IMG/VR virus record: IMGVR_UViG_3300023296_001674
DNA from: a virus
Direction: 5' to 3' (one strand)
DNA: 64,000 nucleotides
Below the pieces are notes generated by a model that did no database searches, was not told the DNA's origin, and saw only the letters and a program-made list of their open reading frames with translations. Shown piece by piece: positions 3,223 to 37,595 of this stretch. The position numbers and the translations under genes are program-made. How positions within the stretch are numbered: the stretch's first letter is position 1; each line of letters opens with the position of its first letter.

Positions 3223-3414
3223 ATGTTATCAGAAGAAGAAAAACGTTTTATTGCATTTTGTGCCGAACTTGGCAAACTTTCCGTGAAACATGGCGTTACC
3301 ATTTATTCATGTGGTGGTGTTACTATTCACGACGTGCCATTATTAGAAGTGCTTTACATCGACGATGTATCAAGTGGTGATTTGGATTCAGTTATTGTAG
3401 AAAAGGAAATATAA
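3223..3414 (+). CDS. Hypothetical protein
   Basis: Track ORF trimmed to ATG 3223 after AAAGGAA. Promoter TTGACA 3165-3170 / TATAGT. Confidence 0.65.
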   Translation: MLSEEEKRFIAFCAELGKLSVKHGVTIYSCGGVTIHDVPLLEVLYIDDVSSGDLDSVIVEKEI

Positions 3415-4206: not shown

Positions 4207-4325
4207 GGTTTATTTGGCTGCGAAAAATAACTGCACCAAAATGAAATAAAGTATTGACACCTTCTATCCAACCTGTATAATACCCACAGATTGAACGAAA
4301 CGACTTACCCCGAAGGAACGAACAA

Positions 4326-8473: not shown

Positions 8474-8550
8474 CCATTATTATTAAAAATAAACCATTGA
8501 CAACGGCTTTTGTATTTTATATAATATATAGATTGAAAAGGAGAATTGAA

Positions 8551-19556: not shown

Positions 19557-19621
19557 AAAGGAGACGGGGTTCGCCCCGTTTTCTTTTAGGTATATATTCC
19601 AGAAAAAACTCATCCCTCCCT
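19555..19621 (-). ncRNA. Predicted ~67-nt RNA from copy E (micro-ORF MSFFWNIYLKENG...)
   Basis: Predicted +1 at 19621. Ends at hairpin 19579-19564 plus a U5 run. Confidence 0.35.
19564..19587. terminator. Bidirectional terminator
   Basis: acggggttcgccccgt hairpin, T-rich after and A5 before. Confidence 0.75.
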
Positions 19622-21514: not shown

Positions 21515-21554
21515 TTGACTCTGGTGTAGTTAGTTCGTATATTAACTACACCAG
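21515..21554 (+). promoter_or_regulatory. Stem-loop promoter (12-bp perfect palindrome arms)
   Basis: TTGACT 21515-21520, 17 nt, TATATT 21538-21543. Arms ctggtgtagtta 21521-21532 and taactacaccag 21543-21554. Identical copy at 29314-29353. Confidence 0.7.
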
Positions 21555-21570
21555 AACAAAGGAACTGAAT

Positions 21571-25427: not shown

Positions 25428-25577
25428 GCGTTTTTTATGGCGCAAGATTATTACAAAATTAAGTGAAACAAAGTAATAAAATAATGCATTATTCGGTTGA
25501 CCATGTTACAGTTATTTGCTATATTTAAATTGTTCCAAGGCACTAACGCCTAACACAGATTGAAAGGGAACCACAAA

Positions 25578-26054: not shown

Positions 26055-26073
26055 CCGATTCATACAAGGAAAA

Positions 26074-26104
26074 GAAAGTCAAGAGAAATCTTGACTTTCT
26101 TTTC
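26074..26104. terminator. Bidirectional terminator carrying TTGACT in its arm
   Basis: gaaagtcaaga-gaaa-tcttgactttc, then T-run. The same core agtcaagagaaatcttgact recurs at 27839-27858. Confidence 0.75.
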
Positions 26105-26153
26105 GATTCATTTGTTCACGTTTTGTTCTTATAAGATGATACCCAAAAAAAAC

Positions 26154-26627: not shown

Positions 26628-26674
26628 TTGCGCCTTTTTTTGTTTCGTGGTATAAAATCCGTAGGGGGGGATGA
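26628..26674 (+). promoter_or_regulatory. AGGGAGGGATGA-class promoter, copy I (variant AGGGGGGGATGA)
   Basis: TTGCGC 26628-26633 (in the terminator arm), 17 nt, TATAAA 26651-26656, 6 nt, 12-mer 26663-26674. Confidence 0.45.
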
Positions 26675-26712
26675 GCCGATTTTATCATCAAAATTTATTT
26701 TAATAATAGTGC

Positions 26713-26772
26713 ATTTAGGGGGTTGACTCATCTGATGCCTACCTTTATAACTACAAATAGAAACCAACCACA
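26713..26772 (+). repeat. 60-bp direct repeat (promoter plus UTR cassette), copy 2
   Basis: Identical to 26218-26277. TTGACT 26723-26728 / TATAAC 26746-26751. Confidence 0.9.
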
Positions 26773-26790
26773 ACCCCGAAGGAACTTATC

Positions 26791-27168
26791 ATGCAAAAAG
26801 TAATCGCCCACATCGAAGCAATCAACGCAGCAACCGGCAGCACTTGGGTTTTGAACGCGGATCATTGGGCTGGCTACGAAATAACCACACCCGAAGCGTT
26901 TGATCGTTATGTGCTTACCACAAGCATTTGGGATGCATACAAATATGGCTTGGGCTTTAAGCCACACGGCATGATGATGGAAGCAATGAGCATGGAACAG
27001 TTGGAACGCGAACTGGAAAGCGTTCGCGCTTCAATCGATGCGAACGCCGAACACGAAGCCGAACGGGAACGGGTGAACAATTTCACTTGGCAAGAACATC
27101 TTGCTTGCGCCAACATGCCAGCAATGGCAAACGACTCCCCCTTCGCAGTGTTGCAGGGGGTGCGATAA
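26791..27168 (+). CDS. Hypothetical protein
   Basis: ORF track; RBS GAAGGAA. Confidence 0.7.
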   Translation: MQKVIAHIEAINAATGSTWVLNADHWAGYEITTPEAFDRYVLTTSIWDAYKYGLGFKPHGMMMEAMSMEQLERELESVRASIDANAEHEAERERVNNFTWQEHLACANMPAMANDSPFAVLQGVR

Positions 27169-27182
27169 CCAACCGAAAGGGG

Positions 27183-27205
27183 CGGGGGATTTTCCCCCGT
27201 TTTTT
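27183..27205. terminator. Terminator hairpin
   Basis: cggggga-ttt-tcccccg, then T6. Confidence 0.7.
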
Positions 27206-27229
27206 CGCGCCAGCAATTCCAAAAAAAAG

Positions 27230-27277
27230 ACATCCCTCCCTATGGTGATATTAGCACTATTGCCCAAACAGAGTCAA
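27230..27277 (-). promoter_or_regulatory. AGGGAGGGATGA-class promoter, copy J (variant AGGGAGGGATGT)
   Basis: Minus strand: TTGACT (27277-27272), 18 nt, TAATAT (27253-27248), 6 nt, 12-mer 27241-27230. Confidence 0.55.
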
Positions 27278-27431
27278 CACTTATTTTCGCCCCCAAATTT
27301 CAGGCATCACCCAATCTTACCACGTTTTCGAATTACAAGTCAACCCCCTATTTTAATTCATTTAAGGGGTTGACTCTGTTTGGGTTGGGTAGTAATATCC
27401 CTTTATCAACTTAACAAAAGGAAACAAACAC

Positions 27432-27821
27432 ATGGATTCATTAAACGTTTTTGCGGATTCGAAAGTTGGCGATGGTGCAACGATCAATATGTATAGCGAT
27501 TCAAAGGCTTGCACGATTGTGGCGATTAGTGATAAGCGTATCACGGTTCAATATGACGATGTTAAATTGTTGAACGGTGCGAAATCTGGCGAACCCGATG
27601 CACTGGTTTTTGATGTAGGCGGATTTTCCGCACACTGTTCAGGTCGCCAGCGTTGGGAAACAACACCAAACCCCGAAGGCGGCAAGGTGACTTATTCCCT
27701 GCGCAAGTGGAACGACTACAAAAATGAACCAGTTATGCGGTGGGCACCAGTTGGCAGCAAACGCCACGAAGGTTCAGGCTTAACCGAAGGAAGGCATCAC
27801 CACTACGATTTCAATTTCTAG
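27432..27821 (+). CDS. Hypothetical protein
   Basis: ORF track. Promoter TTGACT 27370-27375 / TAATAT 27393-27398. Confidence 0.75.
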   Translation: MDSLNVFADSKVGDGATINMYSDSKACTIVAISDKRITVQYDDVKLLNGAKSGEPDALVFDVGGFSAHCSGRQRWETTPNPEGGKVTYSLRKWNDYKNEPVMRWAPVGSKRHEGSGLTEGRHHHYDFNF

Positions 27822-27836
27822 GCACAAGGAAAAAGG

Positions 27837-27870
27837 AGAGTCAAGAGAAATCTTGACTTTTCTTTTTTTA
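27837..27870. terminator. Bidirectional terminator carrying TTGACT in its arm
   Basis: agtcaaga-gaaa-tcttgact (27839-27858), then a T-rich run. Confidence 0.75.
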
Positions 27871-27893
27871 TTTTTTCCGCCGCCAAAAAAAGG

Positions 27894-27939
27894 TCATCCC
27901 TCCCTACCACCATAATACACTATTCGAACAACGAGTCAA
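27894..27939 (-). promoter_or_regulatory. AGGGAGGGATGA-class promoter, copy K
   Basis: Minus strand: TTGACT (27939-27934), 16 nt, TATTAT (27917-27912), 6 nt, 12-mer 27905-27894. Confidence 0.6.
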
Positions 27940-27947
27940 GACTATAA

Positions 27948-28074
27948 ACGGGGAACCACGAATGATTCCCCGTTTTCTTTTCTATAATGGCTTGGCTTGC
28001 CGTGTCGCCAGACGATTAGATCATGATGTCAAATCCTTCCGTTAATTTTTATCCGGTGTTTGAACTTACTCTCT
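27948..28074 (-). ncRNA. Candidate ~125-nt small RNA, with similarity to the homing-endonuclease leader
   Basis: Minus promoter AAGTGTTGACA (28107-28102), 16 nt, TATTAT (28085-28080). Terminator acggggaa/ttccccgt (27948-27973). Contains ACACCGGA...CGGAAGGAUUUGACAUCAUGAUCUAA, a two-codon ORF. Confidence 0.4.
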
Positions 28075-28180
28075 ACACCATAATACATTAAACAAAATAG
28101 ATGTCAACACTTATTTTAGGGGTTGACACTAACAATCGAAACCGCTATAACTGTATCAACTTAACCAAAAGGAACACCCA

Positions 28181-28390
28181 ATGTCAAACCAAGCATTTGT
28201 AGTTTATAACGGCAAAATCACAGTCAAGACTGAGATTTACGACGGCGGTTTATATTTCGCCGACACCGTGAAAGAAGTGACACAACGCTTGCGCGATTGC
28301 GAGACGTTGGTTGTTAAATCTGGCAGTGAACGCGACCTTAAGAAAATCGTCACCGTCGCCGACCTTTTCACAAACAATCCCCAAGGATAA
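28181..28390 (+). CDS. Hypothetical protein
   Basis: ORF track. Promoter TTGACA 28123-28128 / TATAAC 28146-28151. Confidence 0.7.
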   Translation: MSNQAFVVYNGKITVKTEIYDGGLYFADTVKEVTQRLRDCETLVVKSGSERDLKKIVTVADLFTNNPQG

Positions 28391-28394
28391 GACA

Positions 28395-28889
28395 ATGTCA
28401 AATCCCAAACACATAAACGATTTTTGCAAAGAACTTCGCGCACTTATGGAAAAGCACGGAATTGATTCATTAGGTGTCGAAATTGAGGGCGACACACACG
28501 GCATAAGTGAACAATTCGTTATCGATGATAATCAAAATAAAACACACGTGATCGACGGATTTTCAAGTTATTTGGATAAATCAGATTTGCGTGATTATAT
28601 CGAAGTAACCAGCGAATTATTGAAACGCGACGACGTTCAATTTGTTATCAACGATTTGCAAGATGATGGAGAAGAAAGTTCCGCTAAACTTTTTGAAGAC
28701 TATATCATCAAAGCGGAAAACAACGGCTTAAACATCGACCAAGCATTCCAAGGCACTATCGCACTAAGGGAAGCAATGAATATTATGGGAAGTTATTTCG
28801 ACGCCCTGAATACTAATAATCTTGTTTTTGTTAATCAAATCAATGCGATTGATTCAGCAATGCTACATTATAAAGATAGTTTAAAATAA
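28395..28889 (+). CDS. Hypothetical protein
   Basis: Track ORF 28311-28889 trimmed to ATG 28395 after AAGGA. Confidence 0.7.
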   Translation: MSNPKHINDFCKELRALMEKHGIDSLGVEIEGDTHGISEQFVIDDNQNKTHVIDGFSSYLDKSDLRDYIEVTSELLKRDDVQFVINDLQDDGEESSAKLFEDYIIKAENNGLNIDQAFQGTIALREAMNIMGSYFDALNTNNLVFVNQINAIDSAMLHYKDSLK

Positions 28890-28950
28890 CCGTTGACACT
28901 GGTACATGAAACCGATATAACTGTATCAACTTAACCAAAAGGATCATATC

Positions 28951-29310
28951 ATGGAAACAATATCGCGGTTTTATGCGCACGCTGGCAAAATTGCCATAAC
29001 GATTGGCGCGGGTGATACTACATATATCACCACAGACCAAGCCGAAATGATCGGCGCTAAATTATCTGAACTTGCCAGTCAAGTGAAAAACGGCAATCAT
29101 TCGACTACGGTTGAAGTTCCCGCAACTGAAGAACAAATGAAACGGATGCGTGAGGATGCGCCCGAAATTTATAAAATCATTCGTTGTTATCGCAATGGCA
29201 ATAGCCCCCGCACAATTGCACGTAGTGTAACGATTTTCGAAGCGCAAGAACATTGTAGCGATCCATCAACCTCAAACACCAAATATTTTGATGGATATGA
29301 GTTGAAATAG
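28951..29310 (+). CDS. Hypothetical protein
   Basis: ORF track. Promoter TTGACA 28893-28898 / TATAAC 28916-28921. Confidence 0.7.
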   Translation: METISRFYAHAGKIAITIGAGDTTYITTDQAEMIGAKLSELASQVKNGNHSTTVEVPATEEQMKRMREDAPEIYKIIRCYRNGNSPRTIARSVTIFEAQEHCSDPSTSNTKYFDGYELK

Positions 29311-29313
29311 GTC

Positions 29314-29353
29314 TTGACTCTGGTGTAGTTAGTTCGTATATTAACTACACCAG
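29314..29353 (+). promoter_or_regulatory. Stem-loop promoter (second copy of the 21515 cassette)
   Basis: TTGACT 29314-29319, TATATT 29337-29342. Arms 29320-29331 and 29342-29353. Confidence 0.7.
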
Positions 29354-29370
29354 AACAAAGGAACAAACAA

Positions 29371-29511
29371 ATGTCAAACGCTGAAATGTATCTCGATTGG
29401 GTTAACAATTTTTTAACTGTTGCACGGTTCGCCGAATATTACAATATCTCCGAGACCGAAGCTCTTGCCGTGATCGAAAAAGGTCGCATCGACCACCACG
29501 CAAATCTGTAA
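29371..29511 (+). CDS. Small hypothetical protein (46 aa)
   Basis: Not in the ORF track. AAAGGAA RBS. MSNAEMYLDWVNNFLTVARFAEYYNISETEALAVIEKGRIDHHANL. Confidence 0.6.
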   Translation: MSNAEMYLDWVNNFLTVARFAEYYNISETEALAVIEKGRIDHHANL

Positions 29512-29529
29512 ACAACGAAAGACAAACCC

Positions 29530-29829
29530 ATGCAAGTCACAACCGAACAACTCGAAACTTTCCTAACTAAAGCGCAAGCACATGTAAACGCTGATTACAG
29601 CACTAACTTTGAAGGCGATGCGCCAACACTTTCGATTGACCCAATGACCGAACGATCTAAGTACGCCAAAATCGTGAAAGATACCGGTCAACGTTCATTG
29701 TGGGGTTTCGTTGAACTATCAACCGGCAATCTGTTGACAGGCAGTTGGAAAGCACCACGCAAATCAAAATCAACATGCGGTCATATTGACGAGCCATTCT
29801 TACCACGGACTCGCTGGATGAGTGTATAA
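29530..29829 (+). CDS. Hypothetical protein
   Basis: ORF track. Confidence 0.7.
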   Translation: MQVTTEQLETFLTKAQAHVNADYSTNFEGDAPTLSIDPMTERSKYAKIVKDTGQRSLWGFVELSTGNLLTGSWKAPRKSKSTCGHIDEPFLPRTRWMSV

Positions 29830-29895
29830 TAAACCCTTGACTCTGATTCAGTTATTCTTTATAACTGAATAATCAGAACAACGAAAGAAAATCCA

Positions 29896-30072
29896 ATGGT
29901 AGGCAAACTTAATTTTCGTGTATTCCAAGATGGCAAACAACACATTGTTTCCGCACGTAGCATCGTGGTTCGTTTTGAACAAGGTGCATTCATATCAGCT
30001 AACATAAGACAAGATAGTGCCGAATATCTTGAAGCATGTGAAGCAATGGTTAAACATGATATGGGCGAATGA
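29896..30072 (+). CDS. Small hypothetical protein (58 aa)
   Basis: Not in the ORF track. Promoter TTGACT 29837-29842 / TATAAC 29860-29865. MVGKLNFRVFQDGKQHIV... Confidence 0.6.
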   Translation: MVGKLNFRVFQDGKQHIVSARSIVVRFEQGAFISANIRQDSAEYLEACEAMVKHDMGE

Positions 30073-30073
30073 T

Positions 30074-30253
30074 ATGACTGAAATTGCACAAGGCACTGAA
30101 GTCAAATTAAAATTCATTAACGGCGAAAATCGTTATGGCGCACTTATGGATAATCGAAAAAAACATTTGATTTATCGCCCCGTTGATGGTATCAATACCA
30201 TTGTTTTTCATAAAGACTTGAAAAGTGTTGCACCCGTATATATTCCATCTTAA
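30074..30253 (+). CDS. Small hypothetical protein (59 aa)
   Basis: Track ORF 30017-30253 trimmed to ATG 30074, directly after the previous stop. Confidence 0.6.
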   Translation: MTEIAQGTEVKLKFINGENRYGALMDNRKKHLIYRPVDGINTIVFHKDLKSVAPVYIPS

Positions 30254-30282
30254 TAAAAACAACAGCCGGAGTCACTTAGGTG

Positions 30283-30328
30283 TTGACTCCGGCATTTTTC
30301 CTGCTAATATACTATCAGGGAGGGATGA
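30283..30328 (+). promoter_or_regulatory. AGGGAGGGATGA-class promoter, copy L
   Basis: TTGACT 30283-30288 (inside the right arm of terminator hairpin ccggagtca/tgactccgg, 30266-30292), 16 nt, TAATAT 30305-30310, 6 nt, 12-mer 30317-30328. Confidence 0.6.
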
Positions 30329-30444
30329 GTAAAATTCGCCCCGAAAAAAACTTTCATTTTATTTCATTTAAGGGGTTGACTCTGATCGGGTTGGGTAGTA
30401 ATATCACTACATCAAAACAAACCAACAACCCAAGGAACAAAACC

Positions 30445-31029
30445 ATGGCAACCGATAAAAATGGCTTAACACTTTCAAACGCTTCTGATTCTGGTTATAA
30501 ATTTGTAACTACTTTGTTTGAAGGACCGCTGGCTGGAAAGTTCGTCGCCTTCGCGGATGTTAAAACCGCCGAATTGCAACGCCTGAACAAATCTCACGCG
30601 CACGGAATAAACGGTTTCTTTGGATTCAAAAACGTTGTTCCGTTGGGCGTTTTCGATGATGTGCGCGACGCCGCATACGTTGGACAAACATTCCACGCAG
30701 GGAACGCAGATGACCGCGACGACAACCTTGCCGAATTATACGCTGGCAATGAGTCAGTTATCCCTAAATCATTGACCGATTGGGATAATCCCGCCGATGT
30801 TACTTCAATGAAAAAAGCCGCAACCCGCGCAAAAACCCGACGCATGGGTAAAACATTCGATGCAAAAAAAGCCGAGACCGCAATCGATAAGTTTGCCAAC
30901 AATTTCAAATCATACAAAATCGGTAACATGGATGTCCGCGTAATCTTGGAACGCATGAAAGAACTGTTTGATAACGGAACAAGCTTAACCCTTTCCGCCG
31001 AAACCGTTTGCTCCGATTACCAGCGATAA
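30445..31029 (+). CDS. Hypothetical protein, possible AP2-like DNA-binding domain
   Basis: Track ORF trimmed to ATG 30445 after AAGGAA. SGYKFV...GKFVAF...LGVFDDVRDAAYV resembles the AP2/HNH-associated fold, recalled by eye only. Confidence 0.6.
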   Translation: MATDKNGLTLSNASDSGYKFVTTLFEGPLAGKFVAFADVKTAELQRLNKSHAHGINGFFGFKNVVPLGVFDDVRDAAYVGQTFHAGNADDRDDNLAELYAGNESVIPKSLTDWDNPADVTSMKKAATRAKTRRMGKTFDAKKAETAIDKFANNFKSYKIGNMDVRVILERMKELFDNGTSLTLSAETVCSDYQR

Positions 31030-31032
31030 CCC

Positions 31033-31073
31033 TTGACTCTGGTGTAATTGATAAGTATAATTGATTACACCAG
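31033..31073 (+). promoter_or_regulatory. Stem-loop promoter
   Basis: TTGACT 31033-31038, 17 nt, TATAAT 31056-31061. Arms ctggtgtaat 31039-31048 and attacaccag 31064-31073. Confidence 0.7.
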
Positions 31074-31090
31074 AACAAAAGGAATTTAAC

Positions 31091-31363
31091 ATGGATAAAC
31101 GCGATGTGATTGTAATTTGCGTTGGCAGTGCCGCCGATGATATACGCGCACTTAATCACGCAACAAACTCCGCAGTTCTAGTCGTTGAAGATAAACCCGC
31201 AATTCACGAAATGGCATTGATGGATGATATATTTTTAACCGATGAAGCAAAAGATATGTTTGTGCTTGAATTAATCGAAGACGCGTTGCCAAAGAATTTT
31301 CTAAGTGAACCAAAACCCCGAAAGGCTTGGAAAAACGAATTCGAAAATCTAGGTCGTAAATAA
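31091..31363 (+). CDS. Hypothetical protein
   Basis: Track ORF trimmed to ATG 31091 after AAAGGAA. Confidence 0.7.
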   Translation: MDKRDVIVICVGSAADDIRALNHATNSAVLVVEDKPAIHEMALMDDIFLTDEAKDMFVLELIEDALPKNFLSEPKPRKAWKNEFENLGRK

Positions 31364-31386
31364 ATCAAAACCAGAGTCACTTAGGT

Positions 31387-31432
31387 GTTGACTCTGGATT
31401 TCTTTCTGCTATTATACTGTCAGGGAGGGATG
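31387..31432 (+). promoter_or_regulatory. AGGGAGGGATGA-class promoter, copy M
   Basis: TTGACT 31387-31392 (in the right arm of hairpin ccagagtca/tgactctgg, 31371-31396), 16 nt, TATTAT 31409-31414, 6 nt, 12-mer 31421-31432. Confidence 0.6.
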
Positions 31433-31455
31433 ACTTTATTTTATTCCCGCACTTA

Positions 31456-31557
31456 TAATAAAAGCCAGACTCGCGTCTGACCTTTATCCTTTCTTTCTAT
31501 CCGGTTTATGTCCGCCACGTCGGGTCGGAACTATGTATCGCCGAACGCGTCGGCTAG
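31456..31557 (-). ncRNA. Candidate ~100-nt RNA convergent with the copy M transcript
   Basis: Minus promoter TTGACA (31591-31586), 16 nt, TATTAT (31569-31564). Terminator GGUCAGAC-GCGA-GUCUGGCU (31482-31463) plus a U-rich run. Confidence 0.35.
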
Positions 31558-31672
31558 ATTTATATAATACCACAACAACCAAACATGTCAACAAAAAAGA
31601 TTCAATAATAACACTTGACTCCGTTTGGGTTGGGTGTATACTATCCATAGATTGAAACAAAGGATTAATCAA

Positions 31673-32593
31673 ATGGCAAAAGCAACCCGCACCAAAATCG
31701 ATCATGAGCAACAAATCACTAACGCTATTGTCGCCCACGTTGAAGGGTATATCGCCGCCGAGGCTACAGGCGAAGAGATCGCACGTTGGGAAAGCCCCTT
31801 CGGAAAATTCTTCCGTGAAGGCCATTTTTGCGCCGCAACCGATAACCAGTATAAAGGCTGGACTAACAATTTTTTCCTTACACTTATGGCGCACGCAAGC
31901 GGATTCAATTCCGATGCATGGGGAACATTCAAGCAATGGAAAAGCATGGGAACGGATGAAACACCCGTATCTGTTAAGCATGGTCAAAAAGGTTCCGCTT
32001 GGATTGCTTTTCCATATATCAACAAAGATAAAGTAACCGGCGACGACACCGTAACCGGATTCGGATATCGCGCCGTATTCAATGCCGATCAAATCGAAGG
32101 ATATACGCCCGAGGTTGTTGAACTACCAGAGTCGCAGGTTGTGCAACATGCCAAAGCTGAAACATTCTTGAAAAATCTGGACGTAACATTCCAGCATATC
32201 GGAAACCGCGCTTTCTATAGCCCTGCTAGTGATGCAATCAGCATGCCCCCAGAAGGCGCGTTTAAGGCGACTGAATACAGTACCGCAACCGAAGGCTACT
32301 ATGGCACCAAGTTTCATGAATACGCCCACGCAACCCTGCACGCTAGCCGGTGCAATCGCGAACAAGGCGCGGATAAAGCTTCATACGCTTTCGAAGAGTT
32401 GGTCGCCGAATTGACCTCGACTATCCTATGTTCGCGCTTTGGTATATCCGCACAACCACGCGAAGACCACGCTAAGTATATACATTCATGGTTGAAAGCA
32501 CTGAAAAGCGACAAGACCATGATTATGAAGGCAATGAAGAAAGCAAGCCAAGCAATCGCTTGGATGGATAAAAAGCAACCAACATCAAAATAA
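31673..32593 (+). CDS. ardC: ArdC-like protein: N-terminal ssDNA-binding (DUF1738-like) domain plus C-terminal zincin metalloprotease
   Basis: Trimmed to ATG 31673. YKGWTNNFFL...WGTFKQW, HEYAHATLH (HExxH), YAFEELVAELTSTILCSRFGI, AKYIHSWLKALKSD. Promoter TTGACT 31615-31620 / TATACT 31637-31642. Confidence 0.8.
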   Translation: MAKATRTKIDHEQQITNAIVAHVEGYIAAEATGEEIARWESPFGKFFREGHFCAATDNQYKGWTNNFFLTLMAHASGFNSDAWGTFKQWKSMGTDETPVSVKHGQKGSAWIAFPYINKDKVTGDDTVTGFGYRAVFNADQIEGYTPEVVELPESQVVQHAKAETFLKNLDVTFQHIGNRAFYSPASDAISMPPEGAFKATEYSTATEGYYGTKFHEYAHATLHASRCNREQGADKASYAFEELVAELTSTILCSRFGISAQPREDHAKYIHSWLKALKSDKTMIMKAMKKASQAIAWMDKKQPTSK

Positions 32594-32597
32594 AAGG

Positions 32598-32636
32598 TTG
32601 ACAGTAAGGATATGATATCGTATTATATCCTTACTG
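32598..32636 (+). promoter_or_regulatory. Stem-loop promoter (12-bp perfect arms)
   Basis: TTGACA 32598-32603, 17 nt, TATTAT 32621-32626. Arms cagtaaggatat 32602-32613 and atatccttactg 32625-32636. Confidence 0.7.
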
Positions 32637-32654
32637 AAACGAAAGGAACACACA

Positions 32655-32756
32655 ATGACACACGGTAACGGCAAGATCAGGCGATTCGCAGGCAATCTAG
32701 GGGCGCTAATGCTGGCAGCGCTGGCAGGCTACGCGACGCTGGTGGTCCTAGCATAA
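32655..32756 (+). CDS. Small membrane peptide (33 aa)
   Basis: Not in the ORF track. AAAGGAA RBS. MTHGNGKIRRFAGNLGALMLAALAGYATLVVLA. Confidence 0.5.
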   Translation: MTHGNGKIRRFAGNLGALMLAALAGYATLVVLA

Positions 32757-32959
32757 CGCCAGAACCGAGTCAAGCACTTATTTCACGGTGTTGCACTTAT
32801 GACACAGTCAAGTCTTTTATTATAAAATAAAAATAAAAAAAGACTTGACATTCGAAAAAAAGAGTGCTCGTGCAGTGTTTTGAAGTTTTTTATTTAATGG
32901 ATACCTTACCCTTAGCTCGAAATACGCCAAAATTTTTCAGGCTAAATCGGAACTCTGGC

Positions 32960-33053
32960 TATCGTGACACTTATCGTGACAAAATGTCGCGATACCATTA
33001 TAATGGGTCATTTATTCATCCTATCGTGACATTTGACCCATTATAATGGGTCA
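32960..33053. repeat. Iteron/palindrome block in the 380-bp noncoding boundary region
   Basis: TATCGTGACA at 32960, 32972 and 33022. Inverted TATCGCGACA at 32985-32994. CCATTATAATGGGTCA at 32995-33010 and 33038-33053. 18-bp perfect palindrome gacccattataatgggtc at 33035-33052. Confidence 0.85.
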
Positions 33054-33164
33054 ATACACCCCCCACCCCCTTTTCTATGAAACACTTATTCATTCAATAT
33101 AAAAAAAATTCTGCGCCAAAATTTTAATAAATAATATTAGGTTTTTAACATAGGAACATTTAAC

Positions 33165-33320
33165 ATGAAAACATTATCCGATAAACAACATGCTACCATT
33201 AAAGAGAACATGCGTGCTATTCCAAAAGCATCATATACAGACATTGATCGCACCGCAGTTCTTAAAGAAGAATATGCTGAATTTATAAAAAATATCAACG
33301 AAAGCGACAAACCAGAATAA
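33165..33320 (+). CDS. Small hypothetical protein (51 aa)
   Basis: Not in the ORF track. TAATAAATA motif 40 nt upstream. MKTLSDKQHATIKENMRAIPKASYTDIDR... Preferred over the antisense track ORF 33137-33379. Confidence 0.55.
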   Translation: MKTLSDKQHATIKENMRAIPKASYTDIDRTAVLKEEYAEFIKNINESDKPE

Positions 33321-33323
33321 ACA

Positions 33324-33755
33324 ATGAGAGCATCCGACTTCATCGCTGAAACACTTATATCTGTTTCGCACGGAACCAATACCGATTTTGATCAATTAGA
33401 TGTGGCAAAAACATCCGATGGTGGAATTCACTTTGGTTCCAATCAACAAGCAGCGTTACGATCAACTGGAAAAAATTCGCGCATCATCGATACACAAATT
33501 GATGTTAGAAAACCAAAACGTTGCAAAGACGATGGATCAGGATGGAAAAACAAAATAAAATCCGCCAAACGTTCTGGATATGACAGTATTGTATATTTGA
33601 ACCGTTATGAAAATATGACCACTGAACGAGTAGAACAGTTATCACAATCCGGCAAACTAGATACTTTGGATTCATTATCCGATGCCGCATTCAAAAAATT
33701 AGTTCCTGAAGCACAAGACAGTTATATTGTGTTCGACAACGATCAAATAAAATAG
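33324..33755 (+). CDS. Hypothetical protein; weak resemblance to ADP-ribosyltransferase-like domains of polyvalent proteins (speculative)
   Basis: ORF track. SHGTNTDFD...GIHFGSNQQAALR...YLNRYEN gives an H / S-Y / E spacing. First 15 nt are identical to the next gene. Confidence 0.6.
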   Translation: MRASDFIAETLISVSHGTNTDFDQLDVAKTSDGGIHFGSNQQAALRSTGKNSRIIDTQIDVRKPKRCKDDGSGWKNKIKSAKRSGYDSIVYLNRYENMTTERVEQLSQSGKLDTLDSLSDAAFKKLVPEAQDSYIVFDNDQIK

Positions 33756-33765
33756 GACACTTATC

Positions 33766-34152
33766 ATGAGAGCATCCGAAATCACAGAAACAACAACGTC
33801 TTTAAAATGGGCAACCCGCAACCCATCACCAAAAGATTATGAAATAGTTATGATCGACATTAAAGCACTTATGGATAATACCAATCGCATACAAAAAATT
33901 TCATTATCTGCTGTAACCAAAGCAGACGATGAAAACATTATAGGTGATCGCGTTTCAAGAGCAAAACAATTTTGGCTAGATGGTGGCGAAATGCGACTAT
34001 CAATGGTTGGATACAGTGATTATTCCAAGATGGTAGACTTCACCGACGGTAGACACCGCCTAATAGCCGCGTATCAACTTGGTGAACGCCATGCACCCGT
34101 ATTGGCAGACAAGGACGGCATAGAAGAATTTAAAGCGCTGGTAGGGGCTTAA
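33766..34152 (+). CDS. ParB-like nuclease-domain protein
   Basis: FTDGRHRLIAAYQLGE (DGxHR ParB/Srx motif). Confidence 0.65.
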   Translation: MRASEITETTTSLKWATRNPSPKDYEIVMIDIKALMDNTNRIQKISLSAVTKADDENIIGDRVSRAKQFWLDGGEMRLSMVGYSDYSKMVDFTDGRHRLIAAYQLGERHAPVLADKDGIEEFKALVGA

Positions 34153-34227
34153 AACCCATCACCCCCAAACTATATTGACACCGTAAAACCACAATGATAT
34201 ACTTATTCTTTAATAAAAGGAAATAAT

Positions 34228-34338
34228 ATGATAAAAGGCAATGACGACAATTTCAGTAGCGATACAGGCAATACCATCGAATGGGGTTTGATCGTTATTT
34301 TACTATTAGGATTTCTTATAATTCCCCTGTTCGGGTAA
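34228..34338 (+). CDS. Small membrane peptide (36 aa)
   Basis: Not in the ORF track. Promoter TTGACA-17-TATACT, RBS AAAGGAA. ...EWGLIVILLLGFLIIPLFG. Confidence 0.5.
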   Translation: MIKGNDDNFSSDTGNTIEWGLIVILLLGFLIIPLFG

Positions 34339-34434
34339 TTAATCATTTGTTAGATTATACCAGTAACGACATATTTGGAATACTTATTGTTATTGTGTGT
34401 ATAGTCCTTATTATATTTGGCCCCATATATATTT

Positions 34435-34665
34435 TTATGTAGTACCCACAATATTTACATTATGCTGCGTGCTAGGAAAATTCAATAGATCATATTGTGT
34501 TATATTATGATTAGCAAATGACATATCATGTGGAAATTTTATTGTTGTATACATTATTGATCCATTAATATTTGCTGTTATATCATGATACCGTTCACGC
34601 GATGGTGATTTATCAATGTTTATTACTGTAAACATCAAAATATTGTTAGTATCGCAGCAGTGCAT
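34435..34665 (-). CDS. Hypothetical protein (tandem paralog family, 1 of 3)
   Basis: ORF track. C-terminal ITQYDLLNFPSTQHNVNIV resembles ITQQSLLMYYGTVNNVTI of the neighbouring gene. Confidence 0.55.
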   Translation of the reverse strand: MHCCDTNNILMFTVINIDKSPSRERYHDITANINGSIMYTTIKFPHDMSFANHNITQYDLLNFPSTQHNVNIVGTT

Positions 34666-34699
34666 ATTAACAATACGGCTAATATATCATCATTAAACC

Positions 34700-34924
34700 T
34701 CACGATATAGTTACATTATTAACTGTGCCATAATACATCAATAATGATTGTTGTGTTATGCTATTATCATTGATAAATTCATTTAACGGATAAGCCAACG
34801 CTACTCGCATAGCCCTCATTTTACCGTCAACAAATGCTTTTTCCACAAAGTCATATTTAATTTCATATTTATGATGTAGTTTAGGTTTAGTTTTTGTTTT
34901 CGTAATATCTATTATGTTTATCAT
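34700..34924 (-). CDS. Hypothetical protein (tandem paralog family, 2 of 3)
   Basis: ORF track. Confidence 0.6.
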   Translation of the reverse strand: MINIIDITKTKTKPKLHHKYEIKYDFVEKAFVDGKMRAMRVALAYPLNEFINDNSITQQSLLMYYGTVNNVTIS

Positions 34925-35109
34925 TTTAATTCACTTATTTCCACACGTTTTTTTGTACTGATTATTGACAGTAAATCACGTTGTGATAATGTCATATTAT
35001 GAACAATGGATACTACGCTATATTTCATAGTCACATCCATAATTATACCATCCTTCCAATATACAATATAATGCATACGATTGAAAACAATATCTGTTCC
35101 ATTTCTCAT
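34921..35109 (-). CDS. Hypothetical protein (tandem paralog family, 3 of 3)
   Basis: ORF track; ATGA overlap; LSQRDLLSIISTKKRVEI tail. Confidence 0.6.
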   Translation of the reverse strand: MRNGTDIVFNRMHYIVYWKDGIIMDVTMKYSVVSIVHNMTLSQRDLLSIISTKKRVEISELK

Positions 35110-35299
35110 TTATTGGTTGCCCCCAAACAGTATTGCATTATGGTTACATTATTTTTAGTATCGTATAACGGTAGGAGATCACATTCATAATATCATAATG
35201 CAAAAAGCAAAGAATACGTTGACTACCACCAATGATTCAGTATCCATTATACGACAGCCAATATTATAAAAATCATAAAAATCCAATCATCATCATCCA

Positions 35300-35479
35300 T
35301 TATTCAAATCCTTTTATTACGGTACAAGTCATTTTGTTACCTGGGTATCGTTCAGTATCCCACGATTCTTCTGGTTGGGAGAATGTATATTCACCGTGAT
35401 TAACGCAGTCATCATAAATGGATGACGTTGTCATTGTATAAGTGAGCGAAAATGTAAGTACTGCTACGCAAGCAAGCAA
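35300..35479 (-). CDS. Small membrane/secreted protein, third member of the Cys-x-G-x-F...C family (TTG start or frameshifted)
   Basis: Not in the ORF track. (M)LACVAVLTFSLTYTMTTSSIYDDCVNHGEYTFSQ...MTCTVIKGFE aligns with 35502-35708 and 35705-35899. The nearby ATGATG is out of frame. Confidence 0.35.
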   Translation of the reverse strand: MLACVAVLTFSLTYTMTTSSIYDDCVNHGEYTFSQPEESWDTERYPGNKMTCTVIKGFE

Positions 35480-35501
35480 ACATCATAGTAACTTTGTATC
35501 A

Positions 35502-35708
35502 TTATTCATTTTCAATTACCTTACATCTAATTGTTTTACCGAAATATTGGTGTGATGAGTATGCTGTATCAAATGTTGAGAATTTGTATGTCCCGTTGGT
35601 ATTGCAATGGTTATATATGGTACCAATTGTGCTATAATAAGTGATACTCACCGTGGTAAGTCCTAATATTAATATTATCACACTTATAGCAATTGTATTA
35701 AAGATCAT
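35502..35708 (-). CDS. Small membrane protein (paralog family)
   Basis: ORF track; TM segment then IYNHCNTNGTYKFS...IRCKV. Confidence 0.65.
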   Translation of the reverse strand: MIFNTIAISVIILILGLTTVSITYYSTIGTIYNHCNTNGTYKFSTFDTAYSSHQYFGKTIRCKVIENE

Positions 35709-35899
35709 TTATCGATACTCCTTATTTGGCAATCCATTATTCTATCATCGAAAGGACGTGTGTCAATAGCATTACGTGAAATGAATTCATGATTGCCATA
35801 TGTTGCACAATTTTCAAACACAGCGGTCAATGCGACTGAATAGGAAACATATGATGTAATCAAAATTGTAACGATTGCTGGTAGCACCATATCTCTCAT
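35705..35899 (-). CDS. Small membrane protein (paralog family)
   Basis: ORF track; TM segment then VFENCATYGNHEFIS...MDCQI. Confidence 0.65.
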   Translation of the reverse strand: MRDMVLPAIVTILITSYVSYSVALTAVFENCATYGNHEFISRNAIDTRPFDDRIMDCQIRSIDK

Positions 35900-36468
35900 T
35901 GTTTTTTCTCCTTTTCGAATTGTTTGACTTCATCAAGAAATTTTCTAATATCTTTATTTCCACCACCGAATATACCAAGCTCTATCATTTCTTGTCGTTT
36001 TCTAAGGTAATCAAAATCACAATTACCATCATATAATCCAGAACCGGTTTGCATAGACCAAAACCGATACATCATGGCTCTTGATGTGTAATGTGGTCCA
36101 TGGTGGTATGATTGTTTTTCAACATCCCAACTACAATCATCTATTAGTTTAAATGCTAACTGCACGTATGCGATAGCAGGGTCTGATAGCCAATCTCTTA
36201 CATTGGTATCGAAGTAACCGGGATCACGGTTCCATTCACGGTCAGCCATTTCGGTAGCCCTACGTATTTCTTTTAGGTAGTCGGGTGGTATGGCATATTT
36301 AAGTTGTGTTATCATATCGAGGTATGGTTTAGGGAGCGCTGTTTTACCATTTTGCAATTTGTCATTATTCGACCAAGCTAAGTGATATATGACTACATCA
36401 TCGGTTTTTTGGGCACCATCGATCAAAGTAGGAAAGACGAGATTAATATCTTTGGTATTAAACAGCAT
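35896..36468 (-). CDS. Hypothetical protein
   Basis: Track ORF 35896-36537. Start placed at the internal ATG 36468 to limit overlap with 36458-36643. ATGs at 36486 and 36537 are also possible. Confidence 0.55.
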   Translation of the reverse strand: MLFNTKDINLVFPTLIDGAQKTDDVVIYHLAWSNNDKLQNGKTALPKPYLDMITQLKYAIPPDYLKEIRRATEMADREWNRDPGYFDTNVRDWLSDPAIAYVQLAFKLIDDCSWDVEKQSYHHGPHYTSRAMMYRFWSMQTGSGLYDGNCDFDYLRKRQEMIELGIFGGGNKDIRKFLDEVKQFEKEKKQ

Positions 36469-36643
36469 CTTTGATATCGATATCATTTTCAAAATATTTA
36501 ACTGAGGACATAACGACAACTTGATTATATGATTCACGTTTCATTATTAATTCGTCGCGATTATGGCTGATATAAGTGCCACTTAGGTATGATCTGCTAT
36601 TTGTTTCTCTAAAGTACACTTTTATTTTATCACCGTTTTTCAT
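36458..36643 (-). CDS. Hypothetical protein
   Basis: ORF track. Confidence 0.6.
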   Translation of the reverse strand: MKNGDKIKVYFRETNSRSYLSGTYISHNRDELIMKRESYNQVVVMSSVKYFENDIDIKDAV

Positions 36644-36870
36644 TATATTTCCTCTATGAGTAATATTTTATCTAGTGGGATGAATGCTCGAAGGGGTTGA
36701 TCATTTACACCAACGATATTGTTTATATCACGATGTATGATAAGACTATCTTCAGAATATGAATAAAATTCACCTATTGTAGTTGATTTATCGGTACTGT
36801 AACGGACATCGATAAACACTTTTATTCTAGTGCCTACCATTAATTGTCTTAATGTATGAGTGTCGATCAT
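36643..36870 (-). CDS. Hypothetical protein
   Basis: ORF track; RBS AGGAGA. Confidence 0.65.
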   Translation of the reverse strand: MIDTHTLRQLMVGTRIKVFIDVRYSTDKSTTIGEFYSYSEDSLIIHRDINNIVGVNDQPLRAFIPLDKILLIEEI

Positions 36871-37327
36871 TTATATCTCCTATGTTTTTTATAGTATATA
36901 GGATAATTGATCATTGTCAAGGGAATAGTGGATTACGGTTTTGGGCGGACTGATTTTACATTGTGGGGAAATTATGGTTCACTTATCGGGTTTATAAGTG
37001 AAAAGGTTTCCACAGTAGAAGCATGCGGTTACGTTTCTTTTATGAAGGGGGATTGTATAGTATACGATGGGGTGATTATGCGGGGGATTTGGTCCTGCGC
37101 ACTTAACATTTGGTGTATTTGTGTAGATTATTTTGGGATTATGTGTCATAAGTGTATTTATTATGGGGTATTATGGGGTATAAGCGCTCAAAAAATTTGC
37201 TTAAAGCCTACGGCTTTTTATGATTTCGTTGTTTAATTGTTGAAGGGCGGCGGCGTAAAACACCGATTGTTACTGTTGATCTATTGTGTCATTACTAAAT
37301 AACATCGTATTTAACAGGAGAAGTAGT

Positions 37328-37543
37328 ATGAATAACAAATTAGGATTGATGGTATTTTATATACATGTTGGAACGTTACCAATGCATAGATCGATGTCAT
37401 ATATAGAGTCGATAAAAAAACAAATAATGGATGGTAAGAAAGAAACGCAGTTAACAAGGAATTATGATACCATGTTTATTCCGTCGTCTGATCCAGATAA
37501 TCGAGATACTGTAATAGAGATGTTTCCATACGAGAATGTATAA
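37328..37543 (+). CDS. Hypothetical protein
   Basis: Track ORF trimmed to ATG 37328 after AGGAGAAG. Confidence 0.6.
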   Translation: MNNKLGLMVFYIHVGTLPMHRSMSYIESIKKQIMDGKKETQLTRNYDTMFIPSSDPDNRDTVIEMFPYENV

Positions 37544-37595
37544 ATATATATATAATAATAAATAACATTAGACTTTACTTATCGGAGATATAACA

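Follow-up and report, generated by a model that had tools for sequence, protein, structure and literature searches.

A convergent promoter pair upstream of an ArdC-like anti-restriction gene in a very large phage, and its possible origin by shuffling of promoter-terminator cassettes

Background

The 64,000-nucleotide stretch of viral DNA deposited as IMG/VR record IMGVR_UViG_3300023296_001674 (hereafter the window, with positions counted from its first letter) contains, between 31,364 and 31,672, two promoters that face each other across a single hairpin, directly upstream of a gene for an ArdC-like anti-restriction protein. The plus-strand member of this pair is one copy, labelled M, of a family of repeated intergenic promoters, here termed class A, whose predicted transcripts all begin with the same short motif. 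The minus-strand member has no minus-strand gene behind it. A preliminary description of the locus, made from the sequence alone, suggested that the two promoters and the hairpin between them might constitute a sense/antisense regulatory pair, or a module resembling a type I toxin-antitoxin system with a 16-residue peptide encoded on the plus strand. We present here a computational analysis of the locus, of the promoter family to which copy M belongs, and of the corresponding regions in related phages.

The window is phage-like, with a GC content of 0.38 and approximately 100 mostly small open reading frames (ORFs) on the plus strand, and its matches in the PHROG collection include a tail fibre, a helicase, a ligase and an anti-restriction protein. 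The ArdC-like protein is also encoded by a 570,549-bp contig in ENA, and the portion of this contig that was fetched is identical to positions 26673-37593 of the window. The phage is roughly 570 kb in size, and the locus lies in a hyperplastic early region made up of small genes. Exact-protein look-ups recovered four related phages with the same architecture as the window phage. One of these is represented by the sequences L026, L027, L110 and L111 (72% protein identity to the window in ArdC and 78% in the helicase), and the others by L112 (77%), L113/L114 (73%) and L115 (69%). Some of the relatives possess genes of the Phage_T4_rIIB family, and it is these rIIB genes alone that hint at an affinity to T4.

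Results and discussion

Anatomy of the convergent locus

All the sequence features named in the preliminary description are present, and their coordinates differ from ours by at most 1 nt. The elements of the locus, from left to right, are as follows.

31367-31401, plus strand: stem-loop with 13-nt arms (31367-31379 and 31389-31401) that are 92% complementary, followed by a T-rich run
31388-31415, plus strand: class-A promoter of copy M, with TTGACT at 31388-31393, a 16-nt spacer and TG-n-TATTAT with the hexamer at 31410-31415; it aligns with 30 other copies
31422-31433, plus strand: AGGGAGGGATGA, the predicted first 12 transcribed bases of copy M, 6 nt past the -10 box
31430-31480 including the stop, plus strand: micro-ORF MTLFYSRTYNKSQTRV of 16 residues, with its TGA (31478-31480) in the 3' arm of the hairpin
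31452-31557, minus strand: predicted RNA of about 100 nt, consisting of a 5' hairpin, a GC-rich stretch, a purine tract and a terminator
31456-31488, minus strand: strand-asymmetric intrinsic terminator, a 14-bp stem followed by UUUUAUUAU
31483-31501, either strand: CU-rich tract on the plus strand and purine tract on the minus strand, 84% complementary to 31650-31668
31564-31591, minus strand: promoter with TTGACA at 31591-31586, a 16-nt spacer and TG-n-TATTAT with the hexamer at 31569-31564
31615-31642, plus strand: promoter of the ArdC-like gene, back-to-back with the minus-strand promoter, with 23 bp between the two -35 boxes
31673-32593, plus strand: ArdC-like anti-restriction gene (phrog_7245, 1.4e-61; Pfam ArdcN and MPTase-PolyVal), the first real gene downstream

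The promoter of copy M scores 10/12 plus the TG against a sigma-70-type consensus. We have shifted its predicted start from 31421 to A31422, because throughout the family the motif begins exactly 6 nt after the -10 box and is preceded by a pyrimidine at -1. The stem-loop at 31367-31401 has a folding energy of -14.9 kcal/mol and accommodates the -35 box of copy M in its 3' arm. It is likely to be the terminator of the upstream gene, which encodes 90 residues. A paralogous hairpin at another copy (30317, plus strand) has retained its pairing through a compensatory change from A-T to G-C. A further promoter-like sequence, ATGACT-18-TATAAT (10/12; 31430-31459, plus strand), is found within the copy M transcript; its start would fall in the hairpin, and it is probably a chance occurrence.

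The convergent arrangement of the two promoters, about 135 bp apart with a hairpin in between, was borne out, and so was the claim that the hairpin pairs better on the minus strand. The core at 31463-31482 forms 8 bp on that strand (-11.1 kcal/mol) as against 5 bp on the plus strand (-6.1 kcal/mol). Extension to 31456-31488 makes the asymmetry more pronounced (14 bp and -17.9 kcal/mol for the minus-strand RNA, as opposed to -7.3 kcal/mol for the plus strand), because two G.U pairs of the minus-strand RNA turn into C.A mismatches on the plus strand. The plus-strand side is thus weak, and its U-run is interrupted. A simple terminator scan did not list this hairpin, probably because the U-run was absorbed in the extended A/U stem. 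As had been proposed, the two predicted RNAs would overlap at their 3' ends, by about 46 nt, and would co-fold into a perfect 46-bp duplex with a free-energy gain (ddG) of -52.8 kcal/mol, a value that follows trivially from their antisense overlap.

The minus-strand promoter is a class-A-type promoter without the motif

With a score of 11/12 plus TG, the minus-strand promoter is the best match in a scan of the 25-34 kb region. Scores of 11/12 or higher are reached at 35 sites in the window, as compared with 4.65 +/- 2.3 in Markov shuffles, and most of these sites are therefore taken to be real promoters. Seven of them lie on the minus strand, and all except those at 31591 and 28107 are followed by a minus-strand gene. 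Sequence comparisons showed that the promoter at 31591 is 79% identical over 52 nt to a motif-bearing promoter of a related phage (L110, position 11792, minus strand), which too stands back-to-back with a plus-strand gene promoter. The homology begins approximately 25 nt before the -35 box, includes both boxes and stops right after the -10 box. The spacer additionally resembles that of the window copy at 19621 (minus strand) and those of phage gene promoters. Given its homology to a class-A promoter, we assign the minus-strand promoter to the class-A type, lacking however the AGGGAGGGAT start that characterizes the family. No stem-loop of its own overlaps its boxes.

The RNA predicted to start from this promoter is more structured than expected by chance: a 109-nt version folds with a z-score of -2.75 (2 of 200 shuffles were as good), whereas the plus strand over the same interval gives -0.11. 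The spacer was correctly noted as relatively GC-rich (0.53-0.58 over 31470-31559, compared to 0.38 for the window), and a small hairpin reported within it is present one base away from the position given there, at 31540-31554. The minus-strand RNA contains no credible ORF, the longest being one of 21 residues that opens with GTG and lacks a Shine-Dalgarno sequence. No paralog of the transcribed part occurs in the window, and no homolog in any of the fetched loci. Rfam searches returned nothing at gathering score in the window and only chance-level matches (E about 8) in 31350-31680, and no tRNA or transfer-messenger RNA was found.

The CU-rich tract at 31483-31501 is complementary over 19 nt to the leader and ribosome-binding site of the ArdC-like gene (-12.2 kcal/mol), and it can also pair with the 5' motif of copy M (-12.5 kcal/mol). 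Read on the minus strand as GAUAGAAAGAAAGGAUAAA, it is a look-alike of a leader plus Shine-Dalgarno sequence with no usable start codon, and it resembles the leaders of phage genes, such as the ArdC leader GAUUGAAACAAAGGAUUAA. A read-through RNA from upstream could mask the ArdC ribosome-binding site via 31483-31501, although this complementarity may be a matter of purine/pyrimidine low complexity.

Two further orphan units were detected on the minus strand, with promoters at 28107 and 19823 and transcribed parts at 28073-27940 and 19790-19662, respectively. Both are back-to-back with a gene promoter, reach a strong terminator after about 130 nt and contain no ORF; their folding z-scores are -2.4 and -3.9. 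Homology among the three orphan minus-strand RNAs was considered and rejected, as sequence comparison revealed none. Each of the two additional units is situated immediately upstream of a minus-oriented class-A copy, and the unit at 28107 carries a Shine-Dalgarno sequence followed by ATG ATC TAA (Met-Ile-stop), reminiscent of the bar minigenes of lambda.

The class-A family and its invariant transcription start

The family was assembled as a set of 31 non-redundant class-A copies from five phages (the window phage, L026/L110, L112, L113 and L115). In the window, AGGGAGGGATGA is found 13 times with one mismatch allowed (4195-31433), against 0.14 expected, and these copies are dispersed within 4-32 kb among about 60 small genes. 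The 10-nt sequence AGGGAGGGAT is invariant in all 31 copies and always starts 6 nt after the -10 hexamer, and the base at -1 is a pyrimidine in every one of them. Beyond it, position 11 is a G in just 25 copies, and six copies have lost the ATG, which is consequently not a conserved element of the family. A T-rich tract at about +13 to +21 is usual after AGGGAGGGAT. The copies are always intergenic and occur in both orientations: the next gene promoter lies about 46-83 nt downstream of those in plus orientation, and those in minus orientation read into the terminator that ends the plus-strand gene before them.

None of the 31 copies has a real gene behind it, the ORFs opened by the ATG being 2-29 codons long or running antisense through neighbouring genes. 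One such ORF of 161 residues (at 19613, opened by the minus-strand copy at 19610) was rejected as a gene, being antisense to a plus-strand ORF and without homologs. The micro-ORFs were likewise discarded as conserved peptides. Starts resembling MSFFW, with serine encoded as AGC, AGT or TCT and phenylalanine as TTT or TTC, first suggested coding, but the 31 copies reduce this pattern to a T-run plus GG, and T-rich codons are all that the micro-ORFs of the family have in common. Furthermore, the conserved boxes downstream of class-A copies fall in different reading frames in different copies, and an orthologous pair (L110 9107 and L112 9163, both plus strand) shows 3 synonymous against 6 non-synonymous codon changes, a neutral-looking pattern. 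A second conserved box, GAACAAAACGTGAACAAA, was observed about 30-45 nt downstream of several copies in three phages (window 26120-26137, minus strand; L026 9893-9912, 3950-3930 on the minus strand, and 3300-3320; L113 near 17870, minus strand). In three copies the micro-ORF terminates within this box in the same frame (...NKT stop).

The AGGGAGGGAT start can form 10 bp, interrupted by one bulge, with a 16S 3' end (-13.6 kcal/mol), as compared to -6.2 kcal/mol for the ribosome-binding site of the ArdC-like gene. In several folds of the family RNAs the 5' motif pairs with the 3' tail, an idea that was dropped since such pairing is inseparable from the general C/U-richness of the terminator tails. 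The conservation of AGGGAGGGAT in 31 gene-less promoters, across phages whose proteins are only 69-78% identical, implies a function at the level of RNA or DNA, one that is explained by no known system. As for candidate roles, the motif might bring about termination through a hybrid G-quadruplex plus U-run, take part in R-loop priming, serve as a GGA decoy of the CsrA type or as the operator of a phage factor, or belong to a minigene that provokes the drop-off of peptidyl-tRNA.

Searches of wider collections revealed no close relatives. INPHARED phages (megablast and tblastn) include no close relative; IMG/VR, queried with the protein and two motif patterns, gave unrelated single matches only; and the best match of the ArdC query among JGI metagenome contigs, at 42% identity, was useless for the intergenic region. 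GTDB genomes had no match to the motif pattern, the motif is missing from the P0003 and P0005 contigs (GC 46-54%), and a full-text literature search with the 12-mer produced unrelated primers only.

The ArdC locus in a related phage

The spacer between copy M and the following gene promoter is indeed the longest of its kind, measuring 193 nt to the -35 box as opposed to about 46-83 nt for the other plus-oriented copies. Copy M is also the only one of the 31 copies that has a strong opposing promoter within 300 nt. In the related phage L026 a class-A copy of like orientation again stands upstream of the ArdC homolog, with a spacer to the gene promoter of about 70 bp that contains neither a hairpin nor a minus-strand promoter. 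The two sequences diverge directly after AGGGAGGGATGACT, and the approximately 120 extra bp in the window correspond to the inverted unit. The comparison, in which the antisense unit is missing from L026 and confined to a single class-A copy, thus lends no support to the earlier suggestion of a dedicated sense/antisense pair.

The micro-ORF

The 16-codon ORF MTLFYSRTYNKSQTRV pointed out in the preliminary description does exist on the plus strand, but it probably does not encode a functional peptide. The predicted product is hydrophilic and basic, with a grand average of hydropathy (GRAVY) of -0.84, a charge of +2.5 and no hydrophobic stretch, in contrast to values of +0.42 to +2.44 for three known type I toxins. 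Its ATG is located 1 nt past the GGAGG core of the Shine-Dalgarno-like run, and the A and U of this codon lie inside the best duplex with the 16S 3' end.

Comparison with known systems

The closest counterparts of the class-A units are the promoter-early stem-loops (PeSLs) of T4-type phages, which are repeated intergenic cassettes in hyperplastic regions (Arbiol et al. 2010, PMC2839356; Comeau et al. 2014, PMC4122927). A PeSL is composed of a near-consensus sigma-70 promoter, a stem-loop at the -35/-10 region that ends upstream transcription, and a Shine-Dalgarno sequence with an ATG; such elements occur at indels between relatives, with degraded copies nearby, and crossovers have been located in the interval from the -10 box to the ATG (PMC2839356, PMC4122927). 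The system described here shares with PeSLs the near-consensus promoters (10/12 plus TG for copy M and 11/12 plus TG for the minus promoter), the overlap of a stem-loop (31367-31401) with the -35 box in copy M, and the presence of many intergenic copies among small ORFans (31 copies in five phages). The repeats that bracket the -10 box of the gene promoters, described below, match a described PeSL subclass. The position of the indel relative to L026, with divergence in the region between the -10 box and the ATG, also conforms to the PeSL pattern, in what is a single comparison. Unlike PeSLs, however, class-A units have an invariant transcribed 10-mer, AGGGAGGGAT, 6 nt after the -10 box, occur in both orientations, and have a Shine-Dalgarno-like run and ATG that never lead into a gene. 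The phage, moreover, is about 570 kb in size, and its affinity to T4 is hinted at only by the rIIB genes of its relatives.

Other points of comparison are provided by known antisense RNAs. The OOP RNA of lambda and the RNAs of the TxpA/RatA and BsrG/SR4 pairs are short (about 77-220 nt), have their own promoter and terminator, and are complementary to the 3' end of an opposing transcript. The minus-strand RNA predicted here is similarly short, convergent and complementary at the 3' end; it differs from them in that the opposing transcript carries neither a gene nor a toxin-like peptide and in that the pair is not conserved. The hairpin at this locus also has the layout of bidirectional intrinsic terminators, in which two convergent units share a GC-rich stem that is bordered by an A-tract and, opposite it, a T-tract. 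It is, however, strongly asymmetric (-17.9 versus -7.3 kcal/mol) and effectively belongs to the minus-strand unit. The strong Shine-Dalgarno-like purine run at the extreme 5' end of class-A transcripts, which starts no real gene, recalls the 5' Shine-Dalgarno-like stabilizers, such as the STAB-SD of cryIIIA and the polypurine 5' stabilizer of the phage SP82 RNA. The difference is that there is no message to be stabilized, since half of the class-A copies face away from any gene.

Evaluation of alternative explanations

The explanation that we favour, with moderate confidence, is that an inverted, ORF-less promoter-terminator cassette of the class-A type was inserted between copy M and the ArdC promoter, and that the locus represents cassette shuffling and punctuation. 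The anatomy of the locus, the strand asymmetry of the hairpin, the homology of the minus-strand promoter, the absence of the unit from one relative and the lack of a conserved peptide are shown by the sequences themselves. Under this proposal, the first cassette would be an ordinary class-A unit, with a stem-loop that ends the transcription of the previous gene, a promoter and a transcript initiated with AGGGAGGGAT. The second would have an inverted class-A-type promoter (31591-31564), in which the motif was swapped for a unique GC-rich segment, a purine tract and a terminator of its own. Both cassettes would transcribe into the one hairpin, which would be efficient for the minus strand only. 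The minus-strand unit would yield a short dead-end RNA of about 100 nt, and copy M transcripts leaking past the weak side of the hairpin would meet a head-on polymerase and a complementary RNA. The ArdC-like gene would in this way be uncoupled from upstream transcription and left with its own promoter only, whereas in L026 the class-A copy would read into the ArdC promoter region. We infer that both promoters fire, where their transcripts end, that the arrangement arose by cassette recombination and that it has an insulating effect; at most, the cassette would act as an insulator.

Several considerations weigh against this explanation. A consensus-grade promoter, a minus-favouring terminator with G.U pairs and a 5' stem-loop together have the look of a maintained small-RNA gene, and such intact parts argue against a leftover, as decay would be expected to erode them. 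The complementarity of the CU-rich tract to the ArdC ribosome-binding site could indicate a specific regulatory design. Additionally, no recombination product was observed, the analogy to PeSLs is drawn from the literature, and the absence from relatives amounts to a single comparison with the one relative, L026, that covers the locus.

The same features might be taken to indicate a selected, OOP-like cis-antisense pair that gates read-through from copy M and the upstream gene into the ArdC-like gene, by means of duplex formation across the shared hairpin, RNase III cleavage and polymerase collision. Such a role would be in keeping with the strong convergent promoters only 135 bp apart, the quality of the minus-strand promoter and terminator, the perfect duplex of 46 bp, the weakness of the plus-strand hairpin, which makes read-through plausible, and the CU-rich tract in the read-through RNA. 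We nevertheless regard it as rather unlikely: the arrangement is unconserved, being found at one of 31 copies and missing at the ArdC locus of L026, the sole RNA overlapped is a gene-less orphan transcript, and the complementarity to the ribosome-binding site is of a low-complexity purine/pyrimidine kind that any U/C-rich tail would be expected to show. Alternatively, the minus-strand unit could be a stand-alone gene for a trans-acting small RNA that has its target at some other site of the phage or in the host, and could converge with copy M only incidentally. A promoter, a 5' stem-loop, an unpaired middle and a strong terminator would suit such a gene, as would the excess of structure on the minus strand only and the recurrence of this architecture in the two other orphan units. 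On the other hand, the RNA has neither an Rfam match nor a homolog in the relatives or collections searched, and its unpaired region is purine-rich, mimicking a ribosome-binding site instead of complementing one; we consider this improbable.

It is similarly doubtful that the minus-strand promoter is non-functional in the real host, as a chance match or a dead remnant, and that the hairpin is simply a plus-strand terminator. About 4-5 matches of at least 11/12 per window are expected by chance, and AT-rich intergenic DNA favours such matches; but this promoter includes the TG, shares 52 nt of homology with a conserved promoter family, and faces a hairpin that is clearly better on its own strand. 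We assign a very low probability to a type I toxin-antitoxin module with a 16-residue toxin and the minus-strand RNA as antitoxin. A subclass of these modules with convergent RNAs overlapping at their 3' ends, typified by TxpA/RatA and BsrG/SR4 of Bacillus subtilis, does exist, and the locus resembles it at the sequence level in having a predicted antisense RNA with its own promoter and a 46-nt 3' overlap. This geometry is all that fits, as a hydrophilic peptide whose ATG is so placed lacks what defines a type I toxin. Across the family, six copies have no ATG and the remaining peptides, of 2-29 residues, are unconserved, and the antisense partner is found at one copy only; the suggestion in the preliminary description therefore fails on toxin hydrophobicity, on a translatable conserved ORF and on co-occurrence across loci. 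Finally, the class-A units could be genes for abundant short RNAs whose AGGGAGGGAU 5' end would act as a 'super Shine-Dalgarno' decoy that captures 30S subunits or a phage factor during takeover, with the antisense partner of copy M limiting or processing the RNA, which we hold to be quite improbable.

Additional features of the region

Back-to-back promoter pairs such as the one formed by the minus-strand and ArdC promoters are common in the window (8473-/8497+, 19823-/19838+, 20554-/20569+, 27343-/27370+, 28107-/28123+, 31591-/31615+ and 41570-/41582+, where the signs denote strands). Inverted repeats bracket the -10 box of several gene promoters (31033-31075, 21515-21560, 29314-29360, 32598-32640, and 2553-2510 on the minus strand), with the left arm right after the -35 box and the right arm at about +1 to +10. 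As the sequences of the arms vary from promoter to promoter, it is the structure that is kept and not a common operator. Transcripts of many genes appear to begin with a common leader, (A)GATTGAAA, followed by a Shine-Dalgarno sequence of the AAAGGA type (31648-31668, 8530-8545, 25540-25560 and 4285-4300), which appears to be a second conserved transcription start, specific to gene promoters. Two long, near-identical terminator hairpins (26069-26104 and 27828-27869) are built on the palindrome AGTCAAGAGAAATCTTGACT, which accounts for the TTGACT -35-like box on both strands of their stems.

A gene coding for an ART-PolyVal domain (33324-33755) lies 700 bp downstream of the ArdC-like gene. The ArdcN, MPTase-PolyVal and ART-PolyVal domains are typical of injected polyvalent anti-defence proteins, and here they are found in separate small genes. 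Relatives encode a peptidyl-tRNA hydrolase of the PTH2 family (L113 6820-7311, L114 1260-1751, L115 6878-7336), a few kb from the region rich in class-A copies; the window ORF at the corresponding position (787-1344) gave no PTH2 match.

Conclusions

The convergent pair upstream of the ArdC-like gene is best viewed, again with moderate confidence, as a one-off outcome of cassette shuffling within a system that resembles PeSLs. Read in this manner, it illustrates how the early region of a very large phage has its promoter-terminator cassettes shuffled, inverted and emptied, and it shows that two convergent promoters enclosing a micro-ORF can pass for a toxin-antitoxin locus when they are nothing of the kind. 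The locus also offers a natural variant, a promoter of the class-A type without the motif. Should the improbable reading as decoy and antisense partner be true, the class-A transcripts would represent a new kind of phage takeover RNA with dedicated antisense control. The convergent pair is itself of modest weight; the AGGGAGGGAT start, invariant in 31 gene-less promoters, is of greater interest as a lead.

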